Below are positions 7,079 through 56,162 of a stretch of 64,000 nucleotides of DNA, in pieces. The notes beneath the pieces were generated by a model. The model was given only the letters and a program-made list of their open reading frames with translations, did not search any database and had not been told where the DNA came from. The position numbers and the translations under genes are program-made. How positions within the stretch are numbered: position 1 is the stretch's first letter; each line of letters opens with the position of its first letter. Origin of the DNA: an uncultured Thermococci archaeon (lineage in GTDB: Archaea > CAYQAE01 > CAYVLA01); contig CAZJVP010000104.1 of NCBI GenBank assembly GCA_964549615.1, positions 1 to 64,000 on the forward strand. Reading direction: 5' to 3'.

Positions 7079-7706
7079 TCGTCATCAGGGCCAGCCGCGG
7101 TTCCATGCCGGCGTCGGTGGCTATCTGCAGTGCCCGCTCTTGGGTGATGAAATCCTCTGGCTGATGGAAGTCCGTGTTGACCAGCATCTTGAGACCGACC
7201 TCGGTGCAGACCCTCGCAACGTGTGGGTTTGCTCGGTTATGTCCCGCTCTGGCCGTTATCTCGGCATACTTGCCAGAATCGGCTGCAATCATTGCGTCAG
7301 CTTGGGAGAGCTGACCGGGGTGCGCGAGGATATCGACATACCTAGAGCGAACCGCCGCTGCATTCGTGCCAGGCAGCACGGGTTCGGCAGGGGTCTCACC
7401 GTGGACTAGGACGATGTTGGCCCCGAATTCCTTGGCAGTCCTGGCGAGTTCGTTTATCGTCTGGTAGGGCACGTGGGTCAGTTCAACGCCGGCCAGCATC
7501 TTGATCTCCCAGAATGAGTTTATGTCACGCGCGGCCGCCACCAGCCCGCACACCGCGGACTTCAGATTTGTCTTGTCTGCGTGGTCCGTGATCGCGATGG
7601 CCTGGTGTCCGAGCGCTTCCGCACGGCGCGCTATCTCCGAGGTGATCAATTCCCCGTCGCTCAGGATGGAGTGCATGTGGAAATCGCATCTCTTGCCCAG
7701 TTCCAA
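7023..7706 (-). CDS. PHP-domain (histidinol-phosphatase-like) phosphoesterase
   Basis: DFHMHSILSDG, AITDHAD, GVELTHV, LVHGET, ILAHPG, NTDFH; TTG 7706 preceded by GAGGAG. Confidence 0.85.
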   Translation of the reverse strand: MELGKRCDFHMHSILSDGELITSEIARRAEALGHQAIAITDHADKTNLKSAVCGLVAAARDINSFWEIKMLAGVELTHVPYQTINELARTAKEFGANIVLVHGETPAEPVLPGTNAAAVRSRYVDILAHPGQLSQADAMIAADSGKYAEITARAGHNRANPHVARVCTEVGLKMLVNTDFHQPEDFITQERALQIATDAGMEPRLALMTIKDNPRDLLAQVEIHSRR

Positions 7707-30394: not shown

Positions 30395-30650
30395 TGCAGC
30401 ATCTCTCCGCCGGACCCGAGCACCCACTTAGACCTTTTAATGTTTTCCGGAGCGCATCCTCCTCCACCCTCCTCAGGGCCGTTCGGCCAACCCCGGTGCC
30501 CATCCTGGATTGGCACGGTGCATCATCGGCCGTCCGGACAGGAGGAGCTTGGCGTTCCGGAGGGGCGGCCTTTCCAAAAGGGTCTTGGGCGCCAAGCGGC
30601 CGAATATTCATTTATATGTCAGGAAGGCCATGAGAGGCCGGAGGAGTGCG

Positions 30651-31376
30651 ATGGCCGATGTCGTGGTGAGGACGGAGAACCTTTGGAAGACGTACATGCT
30701 AGGGGAGGTCGAAGTTCACGCACTCAACGACGTCAACCTCGAGGTACGCAGAGGCGAGATGGTCTGCCTCGTGGGGCCGTCGGGCAGCGGCAAGACAACC
30801 TTGCTGAATATGATCGGGGGGATCGGCCGGGCCTCGAAGGGGAGGGTCATCGTCGACGGGGAGGATGTGACCGCTAATTTCGAGAACAGCTATCTGATAA
30901 GGAGGAAGAAGATCGGGTTCATCTTCCAATTCTTCAATCTGATACCAGCTCTCACTGCCTTGGAGAATGTGGAGCTTCCCATGGAGCTCGTGGGGAAGCC
31001 TGAGAAGGAGAGGCGTGCGAGGGCAATGGATCTCCTGAAGCGAGTCGGCCTAGAGCACAGGATGTACCACAGGCCGTCGGAGCTCAGCGGCGGGGAGCAG
31101 CAGCGGGTGGCAATTGCCCGTGCGCTGTCCAACAACCCCTCGATCGTTCTTGCCGACGAACCAACGGGCAATCTGGACACAAGGACCGGCAAACAGATAG
31201 TTGCCCTGATGAAGCAGCTCAACGAGGCCGAGAACCAGACCTTCGTGATAACGACCCATGACACTCGCCTCGCCCGGCTCTCCGACAGGATCGTCTACCT
31301 TGGGGACGGAAAGATCGAGCGAATCGAGGAGGTCCCTCCAGAGGTCAGACAGCAGGCGATGGCCGAGTACGGCTGA
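30651..31376 (+). CDS. ABC transporter ATP-binding protein, LolD/MacB type
   Basis: GPSGSGKTT, IGFIFQFFNL, LSGGEQQRVAIARAL, LADEPTGNLD, TTHD. Confidence 0.92.
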   Translation: MADVVVRTENLWKTYMLGEVEVHALNDVNLEVRRGEMVCLVGPSGSGKTTLLNMIGGIGRASKGRVIVDGEDVTANFENSYLIRRKKIGFIFQFFNLIPALTALENVELPMELVGKPEKERRARAMDLLKRVGLEHRMYHRPSELSGGEQQRVAIARALSNNPSIVLADEPTGNLDTRTGKQIVALMKQLNEAENQTFVITTHDTRLARLSDRIVYLGDGKIERIEEVPPEVRQQAMAEYG

Positions 31377-32865
31377 ACTCCTCGACCGCCTCCGCAGCAG
31401 CCATGAGGTTCGGGATGGGCGCCCACCCATAGGCTTGCATGATCATGCCGTCCATCTTGGACTCGAAGCATATCCTAGTCGACTGCGCGGACTCCTCCGG
31501 ATGCGGGATCTTGCTCGCGGGCTCCCAGAACTGCAAGCCGGCATAAAGCGCGGTGTCCGGACCCACGAGGGAACGTGCTCGAAGCAACTCCTTCCTAATC
31601 TGCTCGGGGGGCAGCCCATTGGCGATGAGGGTTCTGAGCGGACGGGCCGTGTAGCCGGCCAGTTTGAACCAGGAGGCGAGTATCGCCTTGTAGGATGCGA
31701 ACGTCAGGGGGGTCTTGGGATGCACGATCTGGAAGATCTCCTCCGCAACGCAGGCCGAGTACCACCCCCACAGGCGATGGTAGGCCATCGGCATCATCCA
31801 ATCGCATATGCGGCTGAGCTTGCGGTAGCTCTGGCATACCGTCCATGCCGATCTTGGCGACCAGATTGCTAGGCCGATCTGGAACTTGGGGTCGTTGCTT
31901 TTCGCCAGCTCACGCACAGCTTCGAGGAGTTCGCGGAGCCCATCGGCTTTGAATTCGAGCCACTCGAAGAAAATGGGATTGTCCCTCAGCCACCGGAAGA
32001 TGCCCAGTGAGTCCTGCTCCGCAAGCTCGGGCAGTTTCTCCCTGATGTGTTCATCTTCGAAGAGCGCGTTCATCACATCAGCGTAGCCAGCTCCCTGCTC
32101 GGGTTGGAGCCCAACCGTGTTTAGAAGCCCTTCCGTCTCGGCGTGGCGTATCTGGTCGATCTTTGACTGGGAGAGCGTCCTCGCCACCTTTGGGATCTGG
32201 GCCAGCGTTCTGACGAGCACGCGGGCATCGATCCCCGAGGAATCCATCCTTTGTCGGCAGTGTTCGCAGAAGCAGACGATGCCCGGCTCAAGTGCAGCCA
32301 TGTGGGTGTGAGGGTACTTCCACCAGAAATGGTCAAGGAGAATGCCCCGGAGGTCGTATCTGTTCTGGAGCTCGTTCACGATCTCCAGCAGCATGATTGC
32401 GGCGTTCGGGTTGTTTGGGCAGATCCAGTTTCGGTCAGGGTTCCCGGTTATGTCGATCGTCGCCAGTTCATGTGCTTCGCTGACGAATTGGCCGTTGTGG
32501 AGGCTCGTCAGCCAAGCGTAGGTGTTGATCCCGTTGCTTGGGAACACGTCCGTTGATTCGCGGAGCGCGTCAAATCCCATCAGGTCGTGGTCGGAGGACC
32601 GCTTTGGCACGACCACCGAGTTGACGTAGAATGAGGGGTCTATCTGGTGGTAGAACCTCCCCTCCTCGGACACGTACCTCTTCCTCTTCGGATTGTGGGT
32701 GAGCCTCGCATCGATGGGCTGCGGCGGGTGTTCCTCGGCGGTTGAGTTTACCGCGACGAACGCGGAGGATATGCCAAGGCCAGCAAGGTTCTCAGCTACC
32801 CCCGCGACACCCTCATCGCACAGGTCCCAAGGGTGCACCAAAATCCCCAGAAACGGCTTTTGCAC
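31345..32865 (-). CDS. hypothetical TIM-barrel protein, glycoside-hydrolase-like (GHL10/GH42-like)
   Basis: VHPWDL.DEG, WICPNNP, YDLRGILLD, CFCEHC, PMAY; GTG 32865 with GGAGGT RBS. Confidence 0.55.
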   Translation of the reverse strand: MQKPFLGILVHPWDLCDEGVAGVAENLAGLGISSAFVAVNSTAEEHPPQPIDARLTHNPKRKRYVSEEGRFYHQIDPSFYVNSVVVPKRSSDHDLMGFDALRESTDVFPSNGINTYAWLTSLHNGQFVSEAHELATIDITGNPDRNWICPNNPNAAIMLLEIVNELQNRYDLRGILLDHFWWKYPHTHMAALEPGIVCFCEHCRQRMDSSGIDARVLVRTLAQIPKVARTLSQSKIDQIRHAETEGLLNTVGLQPEQGAGYADVMNALFEDEHIREKLPELAEQDSLGIFRWLRDNPIFFEWLEFKADGLRELLEAVRELAKSNDPKFQIGLAIWSPRSAWTVCQSYRKLSRICDWMMPMAYHRLWGWYSACVAEEIFQIVHPKTPLTFASYKAILASWFKLAGYTARPLRTLIANGLPPEQIRKELLRARSLVGPDTALYAGLQFWEPASKIPHPEESAQSTRICFESKMDGMIMQAYGWAPIPNLMAAAEAVEEFSRTRPSPAV

Positions 32866-32963
32866 AGCCGTAAACCTCCGAAGGCAGCCGTTTTTCGATT
32901 TCAGAAACTTATTAATGTCTCGTTTGCTAAATGGACGCCAAATAGCGCTGTTTTTTCCCATCA

Positions 32964-32978
32964 CAAAACATTTATATA
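32964..32978 (+). promoter_or_regulatory. BRE/TATA promoter of the 33.0-39.9 kb operon
   Basis: CAAAACATTTATATA in an AT-rich divergent intergenic region. Confidence 0.6.
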
Positions 32979-33050
32979 GATCTCGGCGGGAAGCGGGCGC
33001 GTCCGAGTGCCGCCCCGGTTTATGGGCGCGTTCCCGAGGAGGGTACTCCA

Positions 33051-33857
33051 GTGGATATGGGTTTCGCACCGTCACGGTGTTTCTTCGCGTTTCTCAGCAT
33101 TGTCTTGGTTTTGCACGGCGTGTCGGCGGTGAGCTATTACTATCCAACGCAGTCTTTCGAGTGCACGATCTACGAGGGGGGCTCGACGATGTACGTGTCG
33201 CAGGCCGTGACCCTATACTGCTTCGAAGGCTTCGTTGAGAAGATCAACGTGACCCTGCCGTACGGGAGGGACGAGATGCCGACCGCGAACGACACGCTCA
33301 GCACCCTGGTGCGCACGACCGCAGGGAAGGACATTGACAGGAGGGTCATCCAGACCGAGAATCGGACCATCATCGAGGTGACGTTGCCCGAGAAGATATA
33401 CGCGGGTGACGACTTCGTCGTGATCCTGAAGTACTACGTGTACGACTCTCCGGGCGAGGCAGGCATATCAAGAAGCGGATGGAAGACGCTCGGCGACAAG
33501 ATCCTGGGGAGAGTCGGAGAGAACAAGCTTGCCGTCTTCAACAGCCCGTACTTTGAAGCCCAGGTCAACGAGCTAATCGTGAAGATGTGGGTACCCTTGG
33601 GCTTCATCGGCAAGGACTGGAAGCCTCCACTGGACTCATCGAAGGTCTATGATCCTGGGAGCGGTCGGGTCGGCACGATCTGGCACATCACGACCAACGT
33701 TCCCACCAGGGGCGAGTTCCAGATCCTCTACGGCAAGCCTGGATGGGGCGTCACAGCCTTCTTGGTGATAGGGGCCCTCGTTATCGTGTTCGTGTATCTC
33801 ACGGTGGACATGATGAACAGACTTAAGGAGAAAGCGGAAAGAGGAGAGCTTTGGTAG
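33051..33857 (+). CDS. exported beta-sandwich protein with signal peptide and C-terminal TM anchor
   Basis: Hydrophobic N-terminus ending VSA, beta-rich body, C-terminal TM GVTAFLVIGALVIVFVYLTV followed by a charged tail. Confidence 0.75.
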   Translation: MDMGFAPSRCFFAFLSIVLVLHGVSAVSYYYPTQSFECTIYEGGSTMYVSQAVTLYCFEGFVEKINVTLPYGRDEMPTANDTLSTLVRTTAGKDIDRRVIQTENRTIIEVTLPEKIYAGDDFVVILKYYVYDSPGEAGISRSGWKTLGDKILGRVGENKLAVFNSPYFEAQVNELIVKMWVPLGFIGKDWKPPLDSSKVYDPGSGRVGTIWHITTNVPTRGEFQILYGKPGWGVTAFLVIGALVIVFVYLTVDMMNRLKEKAERGELW

Positions 33858-33865
33858 GAGGTTGA

Positions 33866-34072
33866 GTGATGCTAGGAGTGTTGTCCCGACTTATTCCGGC
33901 GATGAGAAAGCCGATCTTTCCCGGGACCAGGTTTCTCTGGATGGATCTGCTCCTGATGCTGGCCGTCGTCGGGCTTGGCGTGGTCGGCGTGCTGATCTTC
34001 TGGTACGACGAGCGGAGGATGAAGCAGAGGTACTACGAACAGAAGGTCAGGGAGAGTTTGGAGGAGGAGTAA
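33866..34072 (+). CDS. small single-TM protein 1
   Basis: GGAGGT RBS; TM LLLMLAVVGLGVVGVLIFW, then a charged tail; alternative start ATG 33941. Confidence 0.65.
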   Translation: MMLGVLSRLIPAMRKPIFPGTRFLWMDLLLMLAVVGLGVVGVLIFWYDERRMKQRYYEQKVRESLEEE

Positions 34073-34084
34073 GGAGGAAGAATT

Positions 34085-34213
34085 GTGCTTTTGCCTCTGA
34101 CACAGGGCCCGGCTGAGATAAAGGTGGCTGCGAAGCTTCTCTTCATACTCTTGCTCGCGTATGGGTTCTTCCACCTTTACTTGATACTCTGGGGATATCT
34201 GTGGGGAGAGTAG
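34085..34213 (+). CDS. small single-TM protein 2 (42 aa, not in ORF track)
   Basis: AAGGAGG RBS, GTG start; MLLPLTQGPAEIKVAAKLLFILLLAYGFFHLYLILWGYLWGE*. Confidence 0.6.
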   Translation: MLLPLTQGPAEIKVAAKLLFILLLAYGFFHLYLILWGYLWGE

Positions 34214-34226
34214 GAGGTCGACAAGA

Positions 34227-34328
34227 TTGGTCCTAACTCAGATGGTTTCGGGCTTCAACACCATACTGCTCATCATCTGGGTTCTTGTGATCCTGGTAAT
34301 CGGCTACCTTGCCTATGTCAGGGGTTAG
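34227..34328 (+). CDS. small single-TM protein 3 (33 aa, not in ORF track)
   Basis: GGAGGT RBS overlapping the previous stop, TTG start; MVLTQMVSGFNTILLIIWVLVILVIGYLAYVRG*. Confidence 0.6.
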   Translation: MVLTQMVSGFNTILLIIWVLVILVIGYLAYVRG

Positions 34329-34356: not shown

Positions 34357-36735
34357 GTGGTTTTCGAGAACCCGATGTTCCGGATAGCTTGGAAAAACTT
34401 CAGGCGAAGGCGGATCCGATCCGTCATCACTATTCTGAGCATAATGCTCGCGATTGCATGCTTCGTCGTTATCGTCTCCGTCCAAGACACGATTAGCGCG
34501 CAGATCACGAGCTTCCATTCCGGCAGACAACCCTTTCCGTTCTTCGCGGACTTCATCGTCGTCGAGGCGAATCGGTGGGTCAGGAGCGGCATCCGGCCTG
34601 GTCGCGTTCCAGTCACCCTGGTTGAGGAGCTGAGGGCAAATGACCTCGTCGACGTGGTCGCGGTGAGGATCGGCACTCCGGACGATAACGGAGAGCAGCT
34701 TGTGCTGCGCCGGTTCTTCGGCGAGATGTTCACAGTGGTGCACCCGAACGTTCCCGGGCTGGGGCAGACGACGTATCCCGGTTTCCTCAACGTCATCGGA
34801 ATCGACCCCGAGGCTGAAGCGAGGCTCCGCACCCCGAGGGTCAATCAGACCACGGGGATTCCTTATTGGGAACGGTGGGAGGACCTGAATTCCTCAATCA
34901 TTCGCGGAAAGGGCACGACGCTTGAGGCAACTGGGACGGTAGACGAGAAAGTAAACCACGGGCTGAACGGGGAGCTTAGCTTCGTCGTCAGGGAACCGGG
35001 CAGGCCGAACAGGTTTAACCTGAGCATCTACGGGGAGGCTTCTGCGCCCCTCATCACTGCCGAGATCGGCACTGAGGGCTTTACACAGATCCCGCGATTC
35101 GTGTACAAGGATTACGGGTCCAACAGGACCAGGGGCTATCTGCTCGAGGTCAAGGTGAAAGAGTACTCGGAGGAGTCAAAAAAGGTGACTCTCCAGTATC
35201 ACCTCTGGTTCTCTTACGCGGAAGTGGATGAGTCGGGAAGACAGAGGGAGTTCGAGATATCCTACGGAGAGTACCTTGACCAGGAGAACTGGAAAGTGGC
35301 CTCCTACCAAGGCCGTCCCGTGTACCCGGCGATCATAGGGATTGAGAAGGCATACGAGCTGAAGGTGGCCAAGGCAGGCCCGGAGGATGGCGACCTGATC
35401 CTGCTCCCGGGTGGCACGGAAGGCGCAAGCGGCGGAGCGGTCAAGGGCGACTGCTATCTTAGGGTGATCGGGGTCTACGCATCCTCACGCAGGAAGGACA
35501 ACGGCAATGTTTACGTGCACTACCGTGCCGCAATGGAGATGCTGAGCTACCCGGAGGGGTTCGTGCAGGAAGTAGCGGTCACGGTCAAGTTCGACGATGA
35601 TGACAACATCCAGAGAGTGCGGAACACTGCACAGCTTGCGGAGGACGTCGCAAGCCGCAGGGACATGAACACCCAGATACCCAAGCTCGTGATCGGTGAG
35701 AAGGGCGGCGTCAGCATCATCGCGGAGCAGGTGAAGACGACCCAGCTTGCCCACCTGCAGTCGGTTACCATAACGCTCGCCGTGGCGGTGATCGTCGTCA
35801 TGAACGCAACCGTGCTGTCGATATACGAGAGAGTCAGGGAGGTGGGAATAATGGGGGCGATGGGGTCTGAGGTTTGGCATATCATGGATATGTACGTGTT
35901 CGAACTCTTGATCATAGGCCTATTGGGCGGCATCGGGGGTTACTTGATAGGGACCGTCCTGTCCTTGCTCACGCATGTGTTGCCGAACGTGCCCAACATC
36001 CCGCTGAAGGTGAACCCGCTTTGGATAATGGCATCCGTGTCGATAGGGACCCTCGTGAGCGTTGCGGCAGGGATATTCCCGGCCAGGCTTGCAGGGACGC
36101 TAGACCCGATAAAGGCCATCGCGGGCGAGTGGGCGATCAGCCCCACGGAGGGAGTGATCTTCGGGAGCATCTCCAGGTGGTTGAGGAAATCGTACTATGC
36201 GGCGATGGCCGCGAGAAATCTTGGGAAGAGGAAGCTGAGGAGCATATTGACCTCCTTGGGGATCACGGTCGGGATCGGCATGCTGGTCAACCTTCTTGTG
36301 ATATCGGCGTTCCAGAGGCAGCTTACGCCCGGCTACAGCATCAGGGCCTACCAAGTCCAGGCCCTAGCGTTCGCAATCGTGGTCGGTGCGCTTGGGATAA
36401 CGAATGCGATGCTAACCTCCGTTCTGGAGAGAACGAAGGAAATCGGCATCATGGTTGCGGTCGGCGCCACGCCCGGGGAAGTCATGAAGGTGTTTCTATC
36501 TGAGGCGGGCATCATCGGGGCTATTGGGGGGGTTCTGGGATGTGCGCTGGGGACAGTAACCTCGCTTGCATTTCTGGTTGGAAGGACGGGCTTGGATCTG
36601 CCTTTCGGGGCCTTGGCCTTGGGCTGGATCGGGGGAATCTTGCTGGCCGTGGCCGTTGCCGTAGCGGCTGGCATCTACCCGTCCCGTCGCGCGGCGAGGA
36701 TGGAACCGGTTGAGGCGTTCAAGTATGAGTGGTGA
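34357..36735 (+). CDS. ABC transporter permease, MacB/FtsX (type VII) with two FtsX domains
   Basis: AWKNFRRRRIRSVITILSI, large extracytoplasmic domain, ERVREVGIMGAMG, second unit ARNLGKRKLRSILT...ERTKEIGIMVAVGA...PSRRAARMEPVEA. Confidence 0.9.
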   Translation: MVFENPMFRIAWKNFRRRRIRSVITILSIMLAIACFVVIVSVQDTISAQITSFHSGRQPFPFFADFIVVEANRWVRSGIRPGRVPVTLVEELRANDLVDVVAVRIGTPDDNGEQLVLRRFFGEMFTVVHPNVPGLGQTTYPGFLNVIGIDPEAEARLRTPRVNQTTGIPYWERWEDLNSSIIRGKGTTLEATGTVDEKVNHGLNGELSFVVREPGRPNRFNLSIYGEASAPLITAEIGTEGFTQIPRFVYKDYGSNRTRGYLLEVKVKEYSEESKKVTLQYHLWFSYAEVDESGRQREFEISYGEYLDQENWKVASYQGRPVYPAIIGIEKAYELKVAKAGPEDGDLILLPGGTEGASGGAVKGDCYLRVIGVYASSRRKDNGNVYVHYRAAMEMLSYPEGFVQEVAVTVKFDDDDNIQRVRNTAQLAEDVASRRDMNTQIPKLVIGEKGGVSIIAEQVKTTQLAHLQSVTITLAVAVIVVMNATVLSIYERVREVGIMGAMGSEVWHIMDMYVFELLIIGLLGGIGGYLIGTVLSLLTHVLPNVPNIPLKVNPLWIMASVSIGTLVSVAAGIFPARLAGTLDPIKAIAGEWAISPTEGVIFGSISRWLRKSYYAAMAARNLGKRKLRSILTSLGITVGIGMLVNLLVISAFQRQLTPGYSIRAYQVQALAFAIVVGALGITNAMLTSVLERTKEIGIMVAVGATPGEVMKVFLSEAGIIGAIGGVLGCALGTVTSLAFLVGRTGLDLPFGALALGWIGGILLAVAVAVAAGIYPSRRAARMEPVEAFKYEW

Positions 36736-36739
36736 TAAG

Positions 36740-37753
36740 ATGGCTAAGGATGAGGGCCGAAATGAGAAGGCCTCGGAGGGAAGCAAGACCGGCACGCGCA
36801 AGGTGATCTCCCCTCTTGAGGTCAAGGAGGGCATGGAGCAGTTCGTGGTCGAGACGATCGATGTCAAGAAGATATACGAGATGGGTGGCGGGAAGATAGA
36901 GGTCAGGGCACTGAACGGCGTAAGCGTCCGGATAGCCAAGGGAGACTTCGTTGCCCTCATGGGTCCGTCGGGCAGTGGAAAGACCACGCTCCTCAACGTC
37001 ATAACGGGCCTTGACAGGCCGACCTCGGGGAAGGTGTTCATGTCGGGAAGGGAGATCACGAAGATGGACCAGGCGCACCTCTCAAAGCTCAGGCAGCAGA
37101 ACGTCGGGTTCATCTTCCAGATCTATAACCTCATCCCTGTTCTCACCGCGATTGAAAACGTCGAGCTGCCCTTGGTCTTCGCAGGCGTGGAGGAGGAGAA
37201 AAGGCGCGAACGGGCTTTGGAGCTGTTGACTCGAGTTGGCCTGGCGGACAGGATAGATCATCGGCCGACGGAGCTGAGCGGCGGAGAGCAACAGAGGGTT
37301 GCGATAGCTAGGGCTCTGGTGAACAAGCCGGATCTGGTCCTTGCAGACGAGCCCACGGGCAACCTCGACACCAAGACCGGCCTTGAGATCATAGATCTCA
37401 TGAAGGAACTGCAGAAAGAGGAAGGCACGACGGTCATAGTCGCGACACACGACCCCAAGGTTGCCGACGTCGTGGACATAATCACCTACCTTCGTGACGG
37501 GCAGATCATTGGCGAGTCCGTGCAGCGGGAGGATCTGGGCGAGGCTCAGACGATCGCCCTGAAGGCGAGCACGAGGATGACGCAGCAGATGCTGGATCAG
37601 ATCCATGCCGATCTGCACAATGCATTATACGCGAGGAAGGTCAAGGTGGGGGACAAGATCTCGCTGCTGGACGCTGAGTTCGAGATAGTGGACACGGAGC
37701 CTTCCGGCTTGGTGAGGGTTATGCGCGATACGAAGATGACGGTCGCCGAATAG
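36740..37753 (+). CDS. ABC transporter ATP-binding protein (LolD type) with C-terminal Cdc48-domain-2-like extension
   Basis: GPSGSGKTT, LSGGEQQRVAIARAL, LADEPTGNLD, ATHD; extra ~80 aa ending FEIVDTEPSGLVRVMRDTKMTV. Confidence 0.9.
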   Translation: MAKDEGRNEKASEGSKTGTRKVISPLEVKEGMEQFVVETIDVKKIYEMGGGKIEVRALNGVSVRIAKGDFVALMGPSGSGKTTLLNVITGLDRPTSGKVFMSGREITKMDQAHLSKLRQQNVGFIFQIYNLIPVLTAIENVELPLVFAGVEEEKRRERALELLTRVGLADRIDHRPTELSGGEQQRVAIARALVNKPDLVLADEPTGNLDTKTGLEIIDLMKELQKEEGTTVIVATHDPKVADVVDIITYLRDGQIIGESVQREDLGEAQTIALKASTRMTQQMLDQIHADLHNALYARKVKVGDKISLLDAEFEIVDTEPSGLVRVMRDTKMTVAE

Positions 37754-37810
37754 CCGTTTTGAGAGAATTTGTGAAGATTAATGAGTTGGAAATTGTTGGG
37801 CTTCATGTAG

Positions 37811-38638
37811 GTGGGTTGGATGGGTTTCGGAGGAGGCGGGTTCGGCGGATTTGGCGGATTTGGCGGCCCCATGGGGGGCGAGGCCGGCGCCGGCGAGCAG
37901 GGCGGCCCCCTAGGCCTTCTGGAAACCACGATACCCGGGCTTCTGCTATTCTTGGGAATCGCCCTCATCGGGACGGGGCTATTCATGTACAGCATGGTCA
38001 AGGTCTGGTCTCCGCGTATATGGCTCCCGATACTTTTCGGCATCGGCATCGCCCTGGGCGGGCAGCTCTTCAAGTTCAGATCGAAGAAGATGATGGGGAG
38101 CTTCGGTGTGGCGCAGGTCTGCGAGATCTGCAAGGTGGAGCTCGCAATCCAGGAGTGCTTCTCGTGCGGGAAATGGTTCGGGCCGGGCTGCGAGGGGAAG
38201 TTCCTGGATGCCTATGGGAACGTTCAGCCTGAGGATACCAGGTGCATCGAGTGCACGACCTGCTCGATCTGCGGGCAGCCGACGAAGGGCTTCCAATGTC
38301 TGAAATGCGGGAAGAGGGTTTGCTCCGAATGCCTTGACGAGACGCAGAGATACTGCCTGCAATGTGCGGGCAGACTGAAGATCGCCAAAGGTACGTCTGA
38401 GGAGGATGCTGGCAAGGAGGTCTCCGACGCCAAGGTCGTCGTGCTGCGGTCACCTTTCAATCTTCCGTCCGCGTTGGTGCGAAAGATAACGGACAAGGTC
38501 AAGAGCGATATCGTTGGAAAGGAGCTCCTGCTAGGGAGGGCATATCCGTCTCTGGGCACGGAGTTCAGGGTGGTGGGGTCGTCTCCAGGGGGGCGGGTGA
38601 TCGTTCGCGAGGACACCAGGGTGAAGATAGAGAACTAG
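37811..38638 (+). CDS. membrane protein: Gly/Phe-rich N-terminus, 2 TM, multi-CxxC zinc fingers, Cdc48-domain-2-like C-terminus
   Basis: CEIC, CFSC, CIEC, CSIC, CLKC, CSEC, CLQC; ends FRVVGSSPGGRVIVREDTRVKI. Confidence 0.75.
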   Translation: MGWMGFGGGGFGGFGGFGGPMGGEAGAGEQGGPLGLLETTIPGLLLFLGIALIGTGLFMYSMVKVWSPRIWLPILFGIGIALGGQLFKFRSKKMMGSFGVAQVCEICKVELAIQECFSCGKWFGPGCEGKFLDAYGNVQPEDTRCIECTTCSICGQPTKGFQCLKCGKRVCSECLDETQRYCLQCAGRLKIAKGTSEEDAGKEVSDAKVVVLRSPFNLPSALVRKITDKVKSDIVGKELLLGRAYPSLGTEFRVVGSSPGGRVIVREDTRVKIEN

Positions 38639-38662: not shown

Positions 38663-39931
38663 TTGAGCGGAATCAAGAGATGGTTTGAGTCCCTAAGGTA
38701 TCTGCCAGGATACCAGAAGATGCTCTTCGTATACCTAGCGATAATAATCCTAGTGATACTTTCTACACGCTACCATCTCGAGAAGGTGATCTTCCCAGTC
38801 GCCTACACGGTAGTCTACTCGGGCATCATCCTCCCTCTATTCCTTCAGAGCCTCATCGGGAAGCTCTCGCAGCGGACCGGCTGGTGGGCGGCAACGGTTA
38901 CGGTGATCATCGGGTTCTACATCCTAATGCGTCTGCTCGTAGCGCTTGACCTGCTTGGCACCGGTCTGATCTACAAGACGAACATCTACGGCATCGTCTG
39001 GACCGCAGCCATCGCCTGCCTGGGGGTGCTAAGCGCTGCCATGCAGCATGGCCTATCGGGCTTGAGGGAGAACATGAGGAGGGAGCTGAGGGAGATAACC
39101 ACCATAAAGCAGATGACCAAGGGCGAGCCGCTGGTCCTAGACAAGAGGACCATTGCCGTGCTAGTCATAGCCGTCGCGGTGACGGCGGGAATCTTGGGCG
39201 CCCGGATCTACCTGCTGAAGAGGCCGGATTTCGTAACTATGTACGCCGTGCCGCGTAACGTCTCTGACGCGCCGGCCAAGCTCTTGGGAATGATGCTGTG
39301 GAATCGTCTGAACCGTCCGGTAAGCGTCTTCACCGTTGCGTTCGCGGGCTACTACCGCTACCCTGCGCAGACGAACTATACGGGGAACGACTTGTTTGAG
39401 CTGGCCAAGAGCGTCAGCATCGTGGCGGATTGCCTCAGCAAGGCGAGCAGCGCGCCCCCCGACATGATCTTGATCAGGAAGGGCGGGTCGCCCAGCGGGA
39501 ACATCCGCCAGATCACCATAGATCTCACCAGGGCCTTCAACTACATGGGCCTGTACGAAAATGAGACCTCTCATCTGAGGATCCCCAGCAAGTTCATCAT
39601 CAGGTGGGACAGGAGGCAGAAGAGGCTCAAGGGGGTCTGGGTTGGGACTCCGGGCGTCCCGTTCATGATATGGCAGAACGGGACGAGAATGGATGGAAGG
39701 GGACTCGTCGAGAGCCTGGACCCATATCGTGAGATCATCCGGCTCGAGGGGATCGAGATGAGGGACGTGCCGGCCGGCGGAAGATACGGCTTCAACTTGA
39801 CTGGGATCTTTCATTCTTGGTTGGGCCCGGAGTTTTCTGACTGCGACGAGTTCCTCTTGGGGGGAGAGGTCCTGTACGAGAGCGGCAAGACGCGGGAACT
39901 CAGGGAGGTCACCATCAGGAGGACCCCTTGA
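38663..39931 (+). CDS. hypothetical membrane protein (about 5 TM plus soluble C-terminal domain)
   Basis: Long co-oriented ORF; hydrophobic N-terminal half, beta-rich C-terminal half. Confidence 0.7.
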   Translation: MSGIKRWFESLRYLPGYQKMLFVYLAIIILVILSTRYHLEKVIFPVAYTVVYSGIILPLFLQSLIGKLSQRTGWWAATVTVIIGFYILMRLLVALDLLGTGLIYKTNIYGIVWTAAIACLGVLSAAMQHGLSGLRENMRRELREITTIKQMTKGEPLVLDKRTIAVLVIAVAVTAGILGARIYLLKRPDFVTMYAVPRNVSDAPAKLLGMMLWNRLNRPVSVFTVAFAGYYRYPAQTNYTGNDLFELAKSVSIVADCLSKASSAPPDMILIRKGGSPSGNIRQITIDLTRAFNYMGLYENETSHLRIPSKFIIRWDRRQKRLKGVWVGTPGVPFMIWQNGTRMDGRGLVESLDPYREIIRLEGIEMRDVPAGGRYGFNLTGIFHSWLGPEFSDCDEFLLGGEVLYESGKTRELREVTIRRTP

Positions 39932-39998: not shown

Positions 39999-42683
39999 GT
40001 GCCCTTGGGCCGAAACAGCCTCGTTGAGACGGGGATATCGCTTGCGGAGAGAAACGAGCTCGTTGCCCTCGCTGAGATGTATATGGGGCACGAGATTTTC
40101 GTCTGGAACGCAAACATAAACGGGATCCTAGTTCAGCTGAGAACGAACGACGCGCATCTTGACGACTTCTGGCGGGAGAACTGGTTCCCAGCTCCGGGCG
40201 TCGAGCACGAACACACGACCCGACCCCACGGCATCATCTACGCCGTCACAAACGTCCCGGGAACCGAGCCCAAAGCCTGCTACCACAGCGGGACGAAGAC
40301 TGCCATCGTGATAAACAAGACGAACTACGACGCGATCAGATCGATCGCCCTCGGAATCGCGATGGATGTATCTGAGGAGCAGAAGGATATGCACTTCATG
40401 AGAGGCGCTCTGGTGGACGTGAACGGCGAGGGGGTCGTGATAACCGGCGACGTGAACTCCGGCAAGACCACGCAGACTTTCCTGCTCTTGGAACTCGATC
40501 GTGCAAGGATCCATTCCAACGACTGGATATACGTCGAGAGGCTCGGAGGGGAAAAGGGCCGGATATCGACCTTGGTGTCGGAAAGGAAGTTCCTCGTGAA
40601 GAACAGCGTAGCTCAGATAAGCCCCCGGATAAAGGAGCTCATCGGGAAGTGCAAGTCCCGCGACGGCTACTTCCTTCTAGATCCTTGGTGGATCGGGGGC
40701 CAGGAGAAGTTCGTGGACACCACCAGGATTAAGATAATCTTCATACTGCAGAGGAGGCCGACCGAGGGGTGGGTGTGCGCCCGGATACCACAAAAGGAGG
40801 CCATCGCTCTTCTGAGGAATGGGCAGGACCCGTTCTTCAACCCGCACTGGCTGGTGAGGACCGAGGACCGAATGGCGTTGCAGACCTCGTTCTTCCAAGA
40901 CATCCTCCAGTTCGTAGCATGCTACCGGGTGAACACTGCAGCAGAGACGCTGGAAGTTCAGAAGCGGATCCGGGAGATCATCAGGTCCAAAGAGTATATG
41001 GTACAGGTCCGGGAAGGGGAGGACGTCCTCCAGGTGAACGAGATCATCAGGCCCGAGGATCTGCAATCCGTCGCGAGGACGATGGCCAAGCTATACGAAA
41101 GCAAGAACGTGGTGCATCCCGATGCGGAGTCACTGAGGGCGATGGCGATCGAGTACGGGACCAAGACCAAGTTCGGCAACTACAACTTCGTCTCCACCGT
41201 CAAGAATCGAAGCGCCGCCCTAACGGTGATCGTAGGCAGCCCTAGGGTCATGGTCGGCAAGCTTAACGACAGGCAGAAGCAGATCCTGAGGAATCTCCCC
41301 AAGACCCTGCAGAACGTTCATGATTATGTTCAGAAGGCTCCGCTTGTCTGCGTCCAGAGGACGATGGGGCAGAACGACATCTTCACTCCGACGTGCAGGC
41401 TTTTCGTCTCCACCCAGAGAAAGGAGATGGTGCGGCTCGCCTACATGGTCGGTGAAACGCTCTTCCCGGACAGCGGTACGGGCAAGCCCCTGCTGCAGCT
41501 GCTGCACATACCGGAGTGGCAAGAGAAAGATCGCCAGATACTGGTCTTCCCCGAAATGGGGATAACGTACGTATTGGGCTCCGACTACTATGGGGAGGAC
41601 AAGAAGGGCTTCCTGAGAATGGCCATGTGGGAGGCCAAGCAGAGGGGCATGCTTGGGCTCCATGCGGGGAGCAAGATCGTGAGGGCGAGGGACAAGGCGA
41701 CGGGCAAGATCAAGAGGTACAGCATGATCATATTCGGCCTGACCGCAACCGGCAAGACGACCCATACTTGCCACGACCACGGACTGACCGGCGAGGGCGA
41801 GGGCGTCGAGATAGTCCAGGACGACGTCATCTTCCTGAGGCCGGACGGGTCGGCCCTTGGGACCGAGAGAGGCTTCTACCTGAAGACCGAAGGCGTCGAT
41901 TCCCGCATCCTTCCGCTCATATACAAAGCTGCAACCCGTCCAAGGGCAATCTTCGAGAACGTTCTCGTCGACTACCTCGGGAACGTCTCCTTCGGAGACC
42001 AGACGCTCACGGGGAACGGCCGGGGAATCATGCAGAGGACCGATTTCGGGAAGCAATGCAGCCAAAGCGTGAACATACCGCCGCTCTCGGAGCTCGACGG
42101 GATGATAATCCTCTTCATCACCAGAAGGAACACCGTCGTTCCACCAGTGGCCAAGCTCAATGCCGAACAGGCGGCTGCTGCGTTCATGCTTGGGGAGTCG
42201 ATCGAGACCACGGGTAGCGACCCGGCCAGAGCGGGGGAGTCCGTGAGGGAAGTCGGCATGAATCCGTTCATCGTGGGGGATCCGGCCGTCGAGGGCGAGT
42301 TCATCTACGAGTTCGCCCGCAAGAACGCCGACAAGCTACAGTTCTACCTCTTCAACACGGGTGCGGTCGGGGAGATCGCCGAGAGGACCCCCGAAGGGGA
42401 GAGGGTGATCCTCCAGAAAGGCGAGAAGATAGGCATACCCGAATCCGCCGCGATCATAAGGGCCATCTGCAGAGGCGAGATCGAGTGGAAGAAGTCGGAG
42501 TACTTCGACGTTCTAGTTCCCAAAGAGGTTCCCGGGATCGACATATCCAAGTACGACCTTAACAGGTTCTACACCAAGGAGCTCGCCGAGGCGTACGTGA
42601 GGGAGTTGATTCAGGAAAGGGTTCAGTGGTTATCCAACTTCAAGGGCCTGAACCCGGCCATAGTGCAGTCCATCATGAAGTAA
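39999..42683 (+). CDS. phosphoenolpyruvate carboxykinase (ATP-type family) fused to an N-terminal HPr-kinase/PEPCK-like P-loop domain
   Basis: C-part: DYYGEDKKGFLR, LGLHAGSK, FGLTATGKTT, QDDV, GTERGFYLKT, FENV, NGRG, LFNTG. N-part: GALVDVNGEGVVITGDVNSGKTT. Confidence 0.85.
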   Translation: MPLGRNSLVETGISLAERNELVALAEMYMGHEIFVWNANINGILVQLRTNDAHLDDFWRENWFPAPGVEHEHTTRPHGIIYAVTNVPGTEPKACYHSGTKTAIVINKTNYDAIRSIALGIAMDVSEEQKDMHFMRGALVDVNGEGVVITGDVNSGKTTQTFLLLELDRARIHSNDWIYVERLGGEKGRISTLVSERKFLVKNSVAQISPRIKELIGKCKSRDGYFLLDPWWIGGQEKFVDTTRIKIIFILQRRPTEGWVCARIPQKEAIALLRNGQDPFFNPHWLVRTEDRMALQTSFFQDILQFVACYRVNTAAETLEVQKRIREIIRSKEYMVQVREGEDVLQVNEIIRPEDLQSVARTMAKLYESKNVVHPDAESLRAMAIEYGTKTKFGNYNFVSTVKNRSAALTVIVGSPRVMVGKLNDRQKQILRNLPKTLQNVHDYVQKAPLVCVQRTMGQNDIFTPTCRLFVSTQRKEMVRLAYMVGETLFPDSGTGKPLLQLLHIPEWQEKDRQILVFPEMGITYVLGSDYYGEDKKGFLRMAMWEAKQRGMLGLHAGSKIVRARDKATGKIKRYSMIIFGLTATGKTTHTCHDHGLTGEGEGVEIVQDDVIFLRPDGSALGTERGFYLKTEGVDSRILPLIYKAATRPRAIFENVLVDYLGNVSFGDQTLTGNGRGIMQRTDFGKQCSQSVNIPPLSELDGMIILFITRRNTVVPPVAKLNAEQAAAAFMLGESIETTGSDPARAGESVREVGMNPFIVGDPAVEGEFIYEFARKNADKLQFYLFNTGAVGEIAERTPEGERVILQKGEKIGIPESAAIIRAICRGEIEWKKSEYFDVLVPKEVPGIDISKYDLNRFYTKELAEAYVRELIQERVQWLSNFKGLNPAIVQSIMK

Positions 42684-52497: not shown

Positions 52498-54321
52498 ATG
52501 GTTAAATTGTGGGGCGGGCCGCCCTCGGCAACGGATGGGCCAGGCAGGGAGTACCTAGAGGTCAAGGGAGGAAAGCGCGTCTTCCGGCGCCTGATGGGAT
52601 ACTGGGTGAAGTACTGGAAGTACTCTGCGGTCGTCATCCTGTGTCTGGTCATCGTTTCGCTTCTCCAATCTCTTCCCCCGCTTTACATCAGGCAGATAGT
52701 GAACGTTGCGATCGTCCGTGGGGATGCGAAGATGCTTTTTCGTCTGTGCATCCTCGTGGTCCTCGCGACCGCGGCTGCGGGGTTCTTCGGGTTCTTCCAG
52801 AGGTATCTTGGCGAGATAGTGGCACAGCGAGTAATCTACCAGCTAAGGAAGGAGATGTACGAAAGCCTACAGGCACAGTCATTCTCGTTCTTCGATCGGA
52901 CGCAGACCGGGCAGCTCATGTCTAGAACCACGATGGACGTGGATCTTATCCGAAGGTTCCTCAGCTTCGGCTTCAGGATGATCGCCGGTGCGCTCATCAA
53001 CCTGGCCGTCGTGCTCTTCATTTGCATATTCGTGTTGGGCGCGCCGGGGCTGACGCTCGTGGCGTTCTGCACGGGCCCCCTGATCGTCTGGGCGATGATG
53101 AGGTTCTCCAAGATCCTTAGGGAGCCGCTGTACACCAGCAGGGATGTCTTTGGGTCTTTGAACTCCGTCCTCCAGGAGAACCTCAGCGGGGCCCAAGTCG
53201 TTGCGGCCTTCGGTCAGCAGGAGAATGAGATCCGCAAGTTCAAGGAAAGAAACGAACGATACTTCGCCCTGTCGATCCTGCTCGCGCGAATCAGGTCCAT
53301 CTATGGTCCCATGACCGCGCTTCTGAGCGATTTCAGCATGATCGCCATCCTCCTGTACGGTGGCTACAGGGTTGCGGCCGGGGACCTCACCATCGGAACG
53401 CTCATTGCCTTCACCATCTACGTGGCTCGCCTGACCGGTCCTCTCAGAATGCTTGGGAACATGACCAGGATCTACCAGGATGCGATCGCCGGAGCGAAAA
53501 GGGTTTTCGAGATCATTGACCAGAGGCCGGAACTTGTCGAGAAGCCGGACGCCCTTGAGTTGGACAGGATCGAGGGAAGGGTCTCCTTCGAGAACGTTTC
53601 CTTCGGCTACGGTGATGGTAGGCGCAGCCTGGACAACGTCTCCTTCTCCGTGGAGCCGGGCGAGACCGTCGTTCTGCTCGGCGCGACGGGATCGGGCAAG
53701 AGCACGATTGCGAATCTGATCCCGAGGTTTTACGACCCTTCGTCCGGATGCGTAAAGATAGACGGCCACGACGTCCGGGATCTGAAGATAAAGTCGCTCA
53801 GGAAGCACATCGGCATTGTCCCCCAAGAGACCTTCCTGTTCTCCACCAGCATAAAGGAGAACATCGCCTATGGCAAGCCGGAGGCGAGCATGGACGAGAT
53901 CGTTCGGTGTGCGAAGATGGCAGAGGCTGACGAGTTCATCCGGGCGTTCCCGAAGGGCTACGACACCATGGTCGGGGAGAGAGGGGTGACGTTGTCCGGC
54001 GGAGAGAAGCAAAGGATCGCCATCGCCCGGGCTCTCCTGATGGATCCAAAGATCCTGATCCTCGACGATTCGACCTCCAGCGTGGACACCGAGACCGAGC
54101 ACGAGATACAGAAGGCCCTAGATGCCCTCCTGAAGGACAGGACCACCTTCATCATAACCCAGAGGCTGTCGATGATCAGGAAGGGCAACCGGATCATGGT
54201 GATGGATCAGGGCAGGATAGCGGAGCAGGGCACGCACGAGGAGTTGCTCGCAAGGAAGGGCATCTACGCAAGGATATACCGGGCCCAGGCGACAGGCTCC
54301 GTGGGCAGGGGCGTGGGCTGA
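52498..54321 (+). CDS. ABC exporter, fused TMD-NBD, subunit 1 of a heterodimer
   Basis: FFDRTQTGQLMSR, GATGSGKST, LSGGEKQR, degenerate Walker B/H-loop ILDDSTS and ITQR. Confidence 0.92.
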   Translation: MVKLWGGPPSATDGPGREYLEVKGGKRVFRRLMGYWVKYWKYSAVVILCLVIVSLLQSLPPLYIRQIVNVAIVRGDAKMLFRLCILVVLATAAAGFFGFFQRYLGEIVAQRVIYQLRKEMYESLQAQSFSFFDRTQTGQLMSRTTMDVDLIRRFLSFGFRMIAGALINLAVVLFICIFVLGAPGLTLVAFCTGPLIVWAMMRFSKILREPLYTSRDVFGSLNSVLQENLSGAQVVAAFGQQENEIRKFKERNERYFALSILLARIRSIYGPMTALLSDFSMIAILLYGGYRVAAGDLTIGTLIAFTIYVARLTGPLRMLGNMTRIYQDAIAGAKRVFEIIDQRPELVEKPDALELDRIEGRVSFENVSFGYGDGRRSLDNVSFSVEPGETVVLLGATGSGKSTIANLIPRFYDPSSGCVKIDGHDVRDLKIKSLRKHIGIVPQETFLFSTSIKENIAYGKPEASMDEIVRCAKMAEADEFIRAFPKGYDTMVGERGVTLSGGEKQRIAIARALLMDPKILILDDSTSSVDTETEHEIQKALDALLKDRTTFIITQRLSMIRKGNRIMVMDQGRIAEQGTHEELLARKGIYARIYRAQATGSVGRGVG

Positions 54322-56162
54322 TGGGCTTCGGGATGCACTTCCACTTCCATGGGATGGACGAGGACGAGGAATACGAACGGACCATGCCCGACAGGGTTCT
54401 GCTCTCCAAGTTGATCTCCTACGCGCTCAAATACAAGCGCCGCCTGGCCGTTTGCGTGATCCTGGTCGTCGGTGGGGCCGTCCTTGGAGTGGTGCAGCCA
54501 GTGCTTGTGAAGAGGGCGATTGACGGATACCTGGTCCCATCGGCCGGTGGGCAAATCGGGCTTTCCGAAGCGATCGGTGGATTGGCCTGGGTCGCGGCAG
54601 CTTACCTCGCGTTGACCATACTGTCCTACTTTGGCGACATGGGCCGCACCTACCTATTGAACTGGATAGGCTCGAGTCTTATGAAGGAGATACGCAACCA
54701 GATGTTCGCCCAACTTCAACGGATGTCGAAGTCCTTCTACGACAAGTCCGAGGTCGGGCGGCTCATGTCCAAGGTGACGGCGGACGTTGAGACGATGTAC
54801 GAGGTGCTGGCGACCGGCTTGCTAAACGTGCTGAGCGACTTCGTCAGGCTCGGCATGATACTGGGCGTAATGTTGATGATCAACGTGAGGCTGACATTGG
54901 TGTCGTTGCTTACGATTCCCATGCTCCTGGGCGTCGCCTTTCTGTTCCGGGGGATGGCAAGGCGGGCTTATCGGCAGACGAGGAGGAAGATCGCGGGGGT
55001 CATGTCAAGGCTCCAGGAAAGCATCAGCGGAGTACGGGTGGCGCAGAGCTTCAGCAGGGAGGACAGAAACGCTCAGGAGTTCGATCATGCAAACGTGGAG
55101 AACCTGCAGGCGAACGTCTATGCCGCGCAGGTCATGTCCATCTTCTTCCCGGCCGTGGAGATCATCGGCTCCGTGGGCCTGATGATCGTCTACTACTTCG
55201 GAGGGTTGTCCTACATCACAGGTGCCATAACGCTTGGCGTGCTGATCCTGTTCCAGCAATACGTCATGCAGTTCTTCGGCCCGATCCAGGATCTCACACA
55301 GTTTTCCAACAGCCTCCAGTCTGCCTTCGCGGCCGCTGAGAGGATCTTCAGCCTACTTGAGACGCCTCCTGAGATCGAGGACCGGCCCGATGCGGTGGAG
55401 ATTGGGCGAGTGGAGGGAAGGGTGGACTTTGAGAACGTGACCTTCGAGTACGTCCCTGGCCATCCCGTCGTCCGCAACCTCACCCTGCACGTCAAGCCTG
55501 GCGAAAGGCTAGCGATCGTGGGACCAACGGGAGCCGGCAAGACGACGGTCGTCAGCCTCCTGATGCGTTTCTACGATGTCACGAAAGGGTCCATCAAGGT
55601 CGATGGACGGGACATACGGGACATCAAGCTGGCCTCGCTTAGGAAGAACATGGCGATAGTGCTCCAAGACACCATCCTTTTCTCAGGGACCATCCGGGAT
55701 AACATAAGATACGGCAAACCCGACGCATCCGACGAAGAGGTGCGCGCGGCAGCCAGGACCGTGGGGGCCGATGATTTCATATCGAGATTTCCAAAAGGAT
55801 ACGATACTGAGATAACCGAGCGTGGAGGCAACCTCTCGGTCGGGCAAAGACAGCTGATCTCGTTTGCCAGGGCGCTTCTGGCGGATCCGCCGATCCTATT
55901 GCTGGACGAGGCAACCTCGAGCGTGGATCCGTATACGGAGCTCTTGATACAGGAGGCGCTGGAGGAGCTTCTCAAGAACAGGACCTCCATCGTCATAGCT
56001 CACAGGCTTTCAACGATCAGGAACGCGGATAGGATCATAGTGATGGATCACGGAGAAATCGTGGAGGAGGGCGCGCACGACGAGCTACTGGCGAAGGGCG
56101 GCCTTTACCGCGAACTGTGCGAGATGCAGTTCATGGCTGGGGAGGCCGCGCAGTCTAGATGA
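54321..56162 (+). CDS. ABC exporter, fused TMD-NBD, subunit 2 of a heterodimer
   Basis: GPTGAGKTT, degenerate signature LSVGQRQ, LLDEATS, IAHR; 1-nt stop/start overlap. Confidence 0.92.
   Translation: MGFGMHFHFHGMDEDEEYERTMPDRVLLSKLISYALKYKRRLAVCVILVVGGAVLGVVQPVLVKRAIDGYLVPSAGGQIGLSEAIGGLAWVAAAYLALTILSYFGDMGRTYLLNWIGSSLMKEIRNQMFAQLQRMSKSFYDKSEVGRLMSKVTADVETMYEVLATGLLNVLSDFVRLGMILGVMLMINVRLTLVSLLTIPMLLGVAFLFRGMARRAYRQTRRKIAGVMSRLQESISGVRVAQSFSREDRNAQEFDHANVENLQANVYAAQVMSIFFPAVEIIGSVGLMIVYYFGGLSYITGAITLGVLILFQQYVMQFFGPIQDLTQFSNSLQSAFAAAERIFSLLETPPEIEDRPDAVEIGRVEGRVDFENVTFEYVPGHPVVRNLTLHVKPGERLAIVGPTGAGKTTVVSLLMRFYDVTKGSIKVDGRDIRDIKLASLRKNMAIVLQDTILFSGTIRDNIRYGKPDASDEEVRAAARTVGADDFISRFPKGYDTEITERGGNLSVGQRQLISFARALLADPPILLLDEATSSVDPYTELLIQEALEELLKNRTSIVIAHRLSTIRNADRIIVMDHGEIVEEGAHDELLAKGGLYRELCEMQFMAGEAAQSR

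Follow-up and report, generated by a model that had tools for sequence, protein, structure and literature searches.

Why should two adjacent archaeal proteins, the ATPase subunit of an ATP-binding cassette (ABC) transporter and a zinc-finger membrane protein, end in what looks like the same small domain? This question is raised by a stretch of 64,000 nucleotides (termed here the window) from an uncultured Thermococci archaeon (GenBank assembly GCA_964549615.1, contig CAZJVP010000104.1, positions 1 to 64,000), in which an initial interpretation of the DNA alone (the sequence-only reading) had noted that the last 69 residues of the two proteins resemble each other and the second N-terminal subdomain (the Nc lobe) of archaeal Cdc48. 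The answer reached here has layers of differing strength: the two tails are homologous; they are predicted to fold as beta-clams; they are encoded side by side at every locus compared and were found in no other protein architecture; and they may well bind each other, in which case the zinc-finger protein would be an accessory subunit of the transporter.

The ABC ATPase (342 residues; 36725..37753, + strand) is followed 57-66 nt downstream by the zinc-finger protein (272 residues; 37820..38638, +), and the tails, as delimited by alignment, profile and model, occupy 37544..37753 (+) and 38429..38638 (+), the stop codon being counted in both ranges. Those coordinates had been given correctly at the outset, as had the tail sequences: the last 69 codons of each gene translate exactly as written. 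The mechanical open reading frames (ORFs) start slightly further upstream, at TTG 36710 for the ATPase (36710-37753, +) and at GTG 37811 for the zinc-finger protein (37811-38638, +; 275 residues). ATG 36725 and ATG 37820 are the likely starts, however, because orthologues (16 of them for the ATPase) open with MSG... and MGFGGG..., respectively, and because Atlas records hold the ATPase from residue 6 and the zinc-finger protein from residue 4.

The two tails align without gaps, with a BLOSUM62 score of 66 and 14 identities over 69 positions--the very number that had been counted by hand. An identity of just 20 % leaves room for a plain answer to our question, namely that the similarity reflects chance or composition, or else that the tails have one of the ordinary regulatory folds of ABC proteins (TOBE/OB or ACT/NIL) and resemble the Pfam family CDC48_2 in no more than a short motif. 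Shuffled controls and profiles speak against the first part of that answer. The Smith-Waterman score of one tail against the other is 67, as compared with a mean of 22.3 (standard deviation 4.3; z 10.5) over 5000 shuffles, none of which equalled the real pair in local score, ungapped score or number of identities, so that the pairwise similarity is significant. Likewise, profile-profile alignment (hhalign) of five ABC tails with five zinc-finger tails gives a probability of 92.8 % and an E-value of 4e-7 over 71 ungapped columns. When the whole proteins are compared by BLASTP, the C-terminal stretch is the sole match (31.2 bits, E 2e-5, 18/83 identities); a single gap, of 4 residues, falls in the linker ahead of the tail. 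Because every other BLASTP segment has an E-value of at least 8, the ABC ATPase and the zinc-finger protein are unrelated outside their tails, as the sequence-only reading had proposed. On these comparisons the two tails are homologous.

Which fold do they share? An AlphaFold2 model of the ABC tail (mean predicted local distance difference test (pLDDT) 84.7; predicted template-modelling score 0.71) consists of a strand, a helix and four further strands, in that order. With this model Foldseek returns 43 PDB chains at E ≤ 1e-3, and among the matches listed all are either PH1500 or Cdc48-type N-domains (p97-N, VAT-N, AtCDC48-N, PEX1-N and MSMEG_0858). The best of them have E-values from 7e-5 to 1e-3 and template-modelling scores, on the query, of 0.58-0.72 (0.69 for VAT-N, 1cz4, and up to 0.72 for p97-N); the two top matches are PH1500 entries, 2m3x and 2jv2 (E 7e-5 and 1e-4; 27 % identity for the best one). 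A separate AlphaFold2 model of the whole zinc-finger protein (mean pLDDT 71.3; tail 81-85) has the same kind of neighbours: its last ~80 residues match VAT-N, PH1500-N, p97-N, PEX1-N and Sec18-N in the PDB. Among the matches listed for both models there is no TOBE, OB or ACT-type ABC regulatory domain, and no Pfam match to a TOBE family occurs at E ≤ 10 in any of the ten tails; hence a common ABC regulatory fold, which the sequence-only reading had named as an outcome that would refute it, was looked for through the models and did not appear.

Profile searches lead to the same relatives. A profile of the ten tails matches PH1500-N among PDB sequences (2jv2 at E 4.6e-4; 4uzr and 2m3x at ~1.2e-3) over 59 positions, and matches the p97-N motif region marginally (E ~0.8; profile positions 55-79). 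Across both tail families six columns (A, G, F, P, V and T) are invariant. The curated Pfam family tells against this assignment, and correspondingly in favor of chance or another fold: the CDC48_2 (PF02933) gathering cut-off of 22.4 bits is reached by none of the ten tails, four of which match weakly (14.0, 12.5, 21.6 and 15.6 bits). The ABC tail of the window scores ~14 bits (E 0.029-0.04), and its zinc-finger counterpart has no Pfam match at all. Moreover, the tails lack both a preceding double-psi barrel (CDC48_N) and an AAA-family architecture, each being C-terminal, after either an ABC nucleotide-binding domain (NBD) or a transmembrane hairpin and Cys-rich region. The proposed resemblance to CDC48_2 thus holds at the level of structure and profile, but not as membership in the curated family. 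The models and profiles support the view that the tails are Cdc48-domain-2-like beta-clams, the closest solved relative of which is PH1500-N. Chance similarity or a different fold is, by comparison, extremely improbable--refuted, as far as computation allows--inasmuch as two independent models share beta-clam neighbours and the PH1500-N match extends well beyond a short motif.

How old is the relationship between the tails, and how widespread are they? A scan of one genome per species yielded 16 loci. The tail is present in four, three of which (L001-L003; 76-86 % tail identity) come from metagenome-assembled genomes of Hadarchaeota and the fourth (L004; 50 %) from an AT-rich, divergent 'uncultured archaeon'; the remaining 12 match just the last 22-48 residues of the NBD. 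In the window and in all four of these loci (that is, 5/5) a tailed ATPase gene and then a tailed zinc-finger gene are directly adjacent, the two overlapping by 4 nt in L004. The Hadarchaeota loci preserve the entire neighbourhood of this gene cassette, and L004 keeps its order: a secreted or anchored protein, a small membrane protein, two micro-ORFs, the permease, the ATPase, the zinc-finger protein and a multi-pass membrane protein. Because each tail in L004 is ~39 % identical to its counterpart in the window, as against 16-25 % between families, the duplication that gave rise to the tails predates the split of these two lineages. In other words, the two tails are, to judge from their divergence, ancient paralogues of one small domain.

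Within a set of 5.8 billion protein clusters, the ten-tail profile matches, at E ≤ 0.01, 38 longer proteins, of which 18 are ABC ATPases and 20 are zinc-finger proteins, all of the latter fitting the Cys pattern described below, with no other architecture among them (the search was based on shared words and scored 7999 candidates, so that distant carriers may be missed). This bears out the earlier remark that an ABC ATPase with such a domain is unusual. A stand-alone module, sought among proteins of 44-140 residues, was represented by just two contig-end fragments, and a third copy, sought with a hidden Markov model of the ten tails over ORFs of at least 50 residues in the window and L001-L004, was not found (next-best E 1.4). 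An exhaustive phmmer search with the zinc-finger tail against 1.84 billion representatives returned five matches at E ≤ 1e-3, three of them orthologues or fragments (P0022, P0023 and P0025); the other two, P0024 and P0026, proved on inspection to be repetitive false positives. This search, made with one sequence, did not extend as far as the ABC tails. When the ABC tail and the Cys-rich region were looked up in the Atlas, all scores stayed below 0.9, and these look-ups are accordingly given no weight. (Alignment A4 omits P0006, which is near-identical to P0005, and P0014, a 237-residue fragment.) The system is confined to little-known uncultured archaea: the Hadarchaeota and one other lineage.

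Do the paralogous tails bind each other? The sequence-only reading had suggested that the modules either pair or bind a common partner, and modelling of the complex lends in silico support to the first of these possibilities. The heterodimer was modelled from ABC residues 262-347, in an alignment of 17 rows, and zinc-finger residues 195-275, in one of 21 rows. It obtains interface scores (ipSAE) of 0.60, 0.63 and 0.69 (median 0.63), as against 0.00 for all three controls; the runs share at least 97 % of contacts, and the pLDDT of the partner is at least 84. In calibration, 116 of 157 solved complexes and 2 of 215 mismatched pairs attained the ipSAE mark, rates that hold only roughly here because custom alignments were used. 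The predicted contacts involve ABC residues 288-294, 297-298, 301 and 320-322 and zinc-finger residues 216-222, 225-226, 229 and 248-250, which are equivalent positions with an offset of 72. They are mirror-paired (294:248 with 320:222, for example, and likewise 297:229), the positions 294/222, 297/225 and 298/226 lying on the axis; the interface as modelled is, in other words, a pseudo-two-fold dimer.

An interface of this kind, formed by equivalent residues of two paralogues, immediately suggests a rival answer: that the module is a re-used dimerisation device, the ATPase tails pairing with each other under the NBD dimer, as do the C-terminal domains of MalK and MetN, while the zinc-finger protein dimerises separately. 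The geometry could serve such ABC-ABC or zinc-finger-zinc-finger homodimers equally, ABC NBDs are established to act as dimers, and, as the calibration shows, close cousins of a true partner also pass complex modelling. These points weigh against the heterodimer, as do the facts that the complex score is the model's own confidence and that the alignments have little depth and consist largely of one clade at 75-90 % identity, which reduces coordinated changes at contacts to about one evolutionary event. (In the L004 clade such changes include D301K and L320H in the ABC tail and K225L, K229G, L222F and L248Y in the zinc-finger tail, a single lineage contrast that carries no statistical weight.)

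The distribution of charge argues for the hetero-pair. The loop and helix at the interface have a net charge of -1 to -6 in 17/17 ABC tails (mean -3.4) and of +1 to +4 in 21/21 zinc-finger tails (mean +2.4). These signs hold in both clades, and the rest of the tails averages +0.8 (ABC) and +1.9 (zinc-finger). Because the interface helices are thus oppositely charged, the hetero-pair is favored; like-with-like pairing would bring charges of the same sign together near the two-fold axis. A zinc-finger homodimer through this face is particularly unattractive in that K225 and K229 of both chains would meet (in most Hadarchaeota copies). The adjacency of the two genes at every locus and the confinement of the module to their products are also more easily explained by a shared complex than by separate homodimers, which we therefore hold to be unlikely. 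The model, then, supports tail-tail binding as a prediction.

What kind of protein would be brought to the ATPase in this way? The zinc-finger protein, whose extent rests on the AlphaFold2 model and on an alignment of 21 family members, comprises a Gly-rich N-terminus that is disordered, a membrane hairpin of two helices (~37910-38095; 34-63 and 68-95 in the model), a Cys-rich region (38120..38365, +) and the beta-clam tail; as a whole it matches no Pfam or NCBIfam family. The Cys-rich region has 15 Cys, mostly arranged as CxxC pairs, and 14 of these residues are invariant in the alignment of 21 sequences (C104, 107, 116, 119, 127, 145, 148, 151, 154, 163, 166, 174, 182 and 185), so presumably this region binds several zinc ions. 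Its similarity to Prok-RING_2 is insignificant (E 0.3; 11.7 bits versus a cut-off of 22.4), and its nearest Atlas cluster, with zf-B_box on 14 % of members, scores 0.77, which is below lead level. A run of positive charge after the second membrane helix suggests that the Cys-rich region and the zinc-finger tail lie in the cytoplasm, as does the tail of the NBD. The disordered Gly/Phe-rich start of the protein (MGFGGGGFGGFGGFGG...; 37820-37930, +) is present in the Hadarchaeota clade and missing from the L004 clade. Its FGGFGG segment was considered as an SHP-like ligand of a beta-clam and dropped, being of low complexity and absent from the L004 clade.

These observations can be assembled into a proposal that we regard as a little likelier true than false: the zinc-finger protein serves the transporter as an accessory subunit, being docked onto its ATPase by a beta-clam heterodimer. 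One beta-clam caps the ATPase, the cytoplasmic subunit that binds nucleotide in a MacB/FtsX-type (type VII) ABC transporter, and the other caps the protein encoded immediately downstream, which would be held in the membrane by its hairpin and would carry a cytoplasmic CxxC zinc cluster. The two would form a pseudo-two-fold heterodimer by means of a loop and the first helix (acidic in the ATPase, basic in the zinc-finger protein) together with a hairpin turn. The membrane hairpin would thus keep the zinc-finger protein beside the transporter, and pairing of the beta-clams--which we infer from the model and the charge pattern, the stoichiometry of any such complex being equally hypothetical--would latch it to the ATPase. 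By analogy with MalK, this latch could let the zinc-finger subunit modulate closure of the NBDs or otherwise gate the ATPase cycle; alternatively, control might run in the opposite direction, with NBD movement, or the state of the transporter, being read out to a cytoplasmic partner of the zinc cluster. Both zinc binding and a regulatory output are suggested by the Cys patterns and by nothing further, and this too counts against the proposal.

The Nc lobe of Cdc48/p97 is a known protein-docking lobe, to which SHP-box cofactors bind as an added beta-strand. A further possibility, accordingly, is that both beta-clams bind the same third component, such as a peptide added as a strand in the manner of an SHP box, without touching each other. 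Besides the docking history of the fold (the PDB neighbours of which include p97-N with SHP, UBX and VIM ligands), the six columns that are invariant across both families would fit such a shared ligand. Yet no candidate partner was identified, the window ORFs scanned containing no third module protein and no Cdc48 or ubiquitin-like genes; a possible motif mimic, the FGGFGG N-terminus, does not extend to the L004 clade; and the heterodimer model passes its controls with no third chain present. Binding of a common partner is for these reasons decidedly unlikely. More speculative is the notion that the cassette is an archaeal membrane-extraction machine, in which a type VII ABC motor replaces Cdc48 and is coupled by beta-clam docking to a membrane-anchored, RING/B-box-like zinc protein. 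The zinc-finger subunit would then choose or tag substrates, in a role like that of a membrane E3 ligase in endoplasmic-reticulum-associated degradation, and the Cdc48 Nc lobe would derive from a docking module that was once free-standing and served several kinds of ATP-driven extractors. This idea is very improbable: its RING-like component depends on the insignificant matches given above, and ubiquitin-like genes were, as noted, not seen among the window ORFs scanned.

The genes encoding the remaining parts of the transporter lie directly upstream. The permease (792 residues; 34357..36735, +), orthologues of which occur in L001-L004, is of the type VII ABC kind: Pfam finds in it two FtsX domains and a MacB-like extracytoplasmic core (FtsX E 1.4e-37, in two stretches; MacB_PCD E 4.7e-6, 27.5 bits against a cut-off of 27); against the NCBIfam models for MacB, ADOP and LolC/E it falls under all of the equivalog cut-offs. 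Its stop overlaps the start of the ATPase gene by 11 nt. The ATPase is assigned by Pfam and NCBIfam to the MacB/LolD/FtsE type (ABC_tran E 7e-37; MacB 7e-76, LolD 2e-75 and FtsE 5e-65, all below equivalog cut-offs), and its NBD ends near residue 265 (in the numbering of P0003), after which come a conserved linker and the tail. Both an NBD of the appropriate group and an FtsX/MacB_PCD permease are therefore present, which by domain content places the transporter among the type VII (MacB/FtsX-type) systems.

The cassette begins with an ORF for a 268-residue protein (33051..33857, +) with a hydrophobic leader at its N-terminus and a membrane anchor at its C-terminus; it has no Pfam or NCBIfam family and is probably exposed outside the cell. 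Its orthologues in the three Hadarchaeota loci occupy the same position and are 66-69 % identical, and similarity to the positionally equivalent 301-residue protein of L004 is weak (E 0.005). Next come a 68-residue single-pass membrane protein (ORF at 33866..34072, +), which is 76-91 % identical in L001-L003 and has a 95-residue membrane protein at the matching place in L004, and two single-transmembrane micro-ORFs of 42 and 33 residues (34085-34213 and 34227-34328, +) within an apparent gap of 284 nt upstream of the permease gene. The micro-ORFs are 77-94 % identical at the same place in L001-L003 and resemble L004 positions 6846-6986 and 6999-7127 (z 9.4 and 8.1; 0/2000 shuffles each); from this conservation in L001-L004 they are likely to be cassette micro-proteins that have escaped annotation. 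In Hadarchaeota the final conserved gene of the cassette is an ORF for a 422-residue multi-pass membrane protein with a C-terminal domain of ~240 residues (38663..39931, +), of which 47-54 % identical orthologues directly follow the zinc-finger gene in L001-L003. Because it shows no significant similarity to the 162-residue multi-pass membrane protein at the same place in L004 (E 3.1), conservation of this last gene between the window and L004 is one of position only. The window otherwise holds housekeeping genes (purine synthesis, topoisomerase, FEN1 and RNase HII) and its base composition is even; hence the cassette is chromosomal and native.

Several other genes of the window deserve mention. 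A tail-less paralogue of the ABC ATPase (30510-31376, +), 53 % identical over 229 residues, has no adjoining permease gene; it has counterparts in L002 (2648-3409) and L003 (3236-3961), and L004 is without a close one (29 % identity at best). It might be a second NBD, making a hetero-NBD pair for the asymmetric two-FtsX permease of the cassette, an idea set aside for want of a close L004 counterpart. Immediately upstream of the cassette, and divergent from it, is a 576-residue ORF (31345-33075, -) that is 58-68 % identical in L001-L003 and has no Pfam family at E ≤ 1e-6. Farther downstream, a gene for an 894-residue PEP carboxykinase-like protein (39999-42683, +), kept in L001-L003 and absent after the cassette in L004, carries an N-terminal extension of ~360 residues with weak P-loop/HPr-kinase-like matches (E 0.013; NCBIfam hpr-ser 0.0026). 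At 52498-56162 (+) a pair of neighbouring ABC exporter genes, both full-length (ABC_membrane plus ABC_tran; 607 and 613 residues), probably encodes a heterodimeric type IV exporter that is unrelated to the cassette.

How does this arrangement compare with systems that are already understood? In MalK and ModC (TOBE), and in MetN (C2/NIL), an extra domain follows the NBD, lies under the NBD dimer and provides a docking or regulatory site; the MalK C-terminal domain, for example, binds regulators such as MalT and EIIA-Glc. By this analogy the ABC tail probably works like the C-terminal regulatory or docking domains of these ATPases, but it differs from them in having a beta-clam fold, in belonging to a MacB/FtsX-type system rather than to an importer, and in that its proposed partner possesses a paralogous copy of the same domain. 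Type VII systems such as MacAB, LolCDE, FtsEX and BceAB-BceS also work with accessory partners, the known ones being bound outside the cell or within the membrane. The transporter described here is like them in that its NBD is nearest to the MacB, LolD and FtsE models and its permease combines FtsX with a MacB-like domain, all equivalog cut-offs being missed. In the literature searched, which included few subscription papers, no ABC ATPase with a beta-clam, no cytoplasmic partner docked on an NBD tail and no zinc-finger subunit was found.

As regards the domain itself, the tails share with the Nc lobe of Cdc48, VAT and p97 both the fold and a C-terminal motif region; unlike that lobe, they are attached to an ABC-class ATPase or a zinc-finger protein, with neither a double-psi barrel nor an AAA+ domain. 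PH1500-N (2jv2, 2m3x and 4uzr), the best match by both profile and fold, is like the tails an archaeal beta-clam that lacks a double-psi barrel and an AAA ATPase. According to its PDB titles and to PMC9218822, PH1500 has its beta-clam at the N-terminus, and the domain after it assembles into a homohexameric propeller of 12 blades. The module described here, in contrast, is C-terminal, being the last domain of both proteins with no propeller-blade domain after it, and is predicted to pair with its paralogue.

What is new, then, is apparently a known fold in a new place, in the form of a paralogous docking pair. The immediate impact is modest, given that the function is predicted and that the system belongs to a restricted set of archaeal lineages. 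If the pairing is real, however, the few regulatory modules known for ABC ATPases would gain a C-terminal domain of a new kind; no accessory subunit on the cytoplasmic side of a MacB/FtsX-type transporter would have been proposed before the zinc-finger protein; and the tails would constitute a compact heterodimerisation pair of ~70 residues each, with opposite charges on one helix. More generally, these proteins provide a second natural context, after PH1500, for a lone beta-clam of the Cdc48 Nc type, which bears on how the composite N-domains of AAA+ proteins were assembled.

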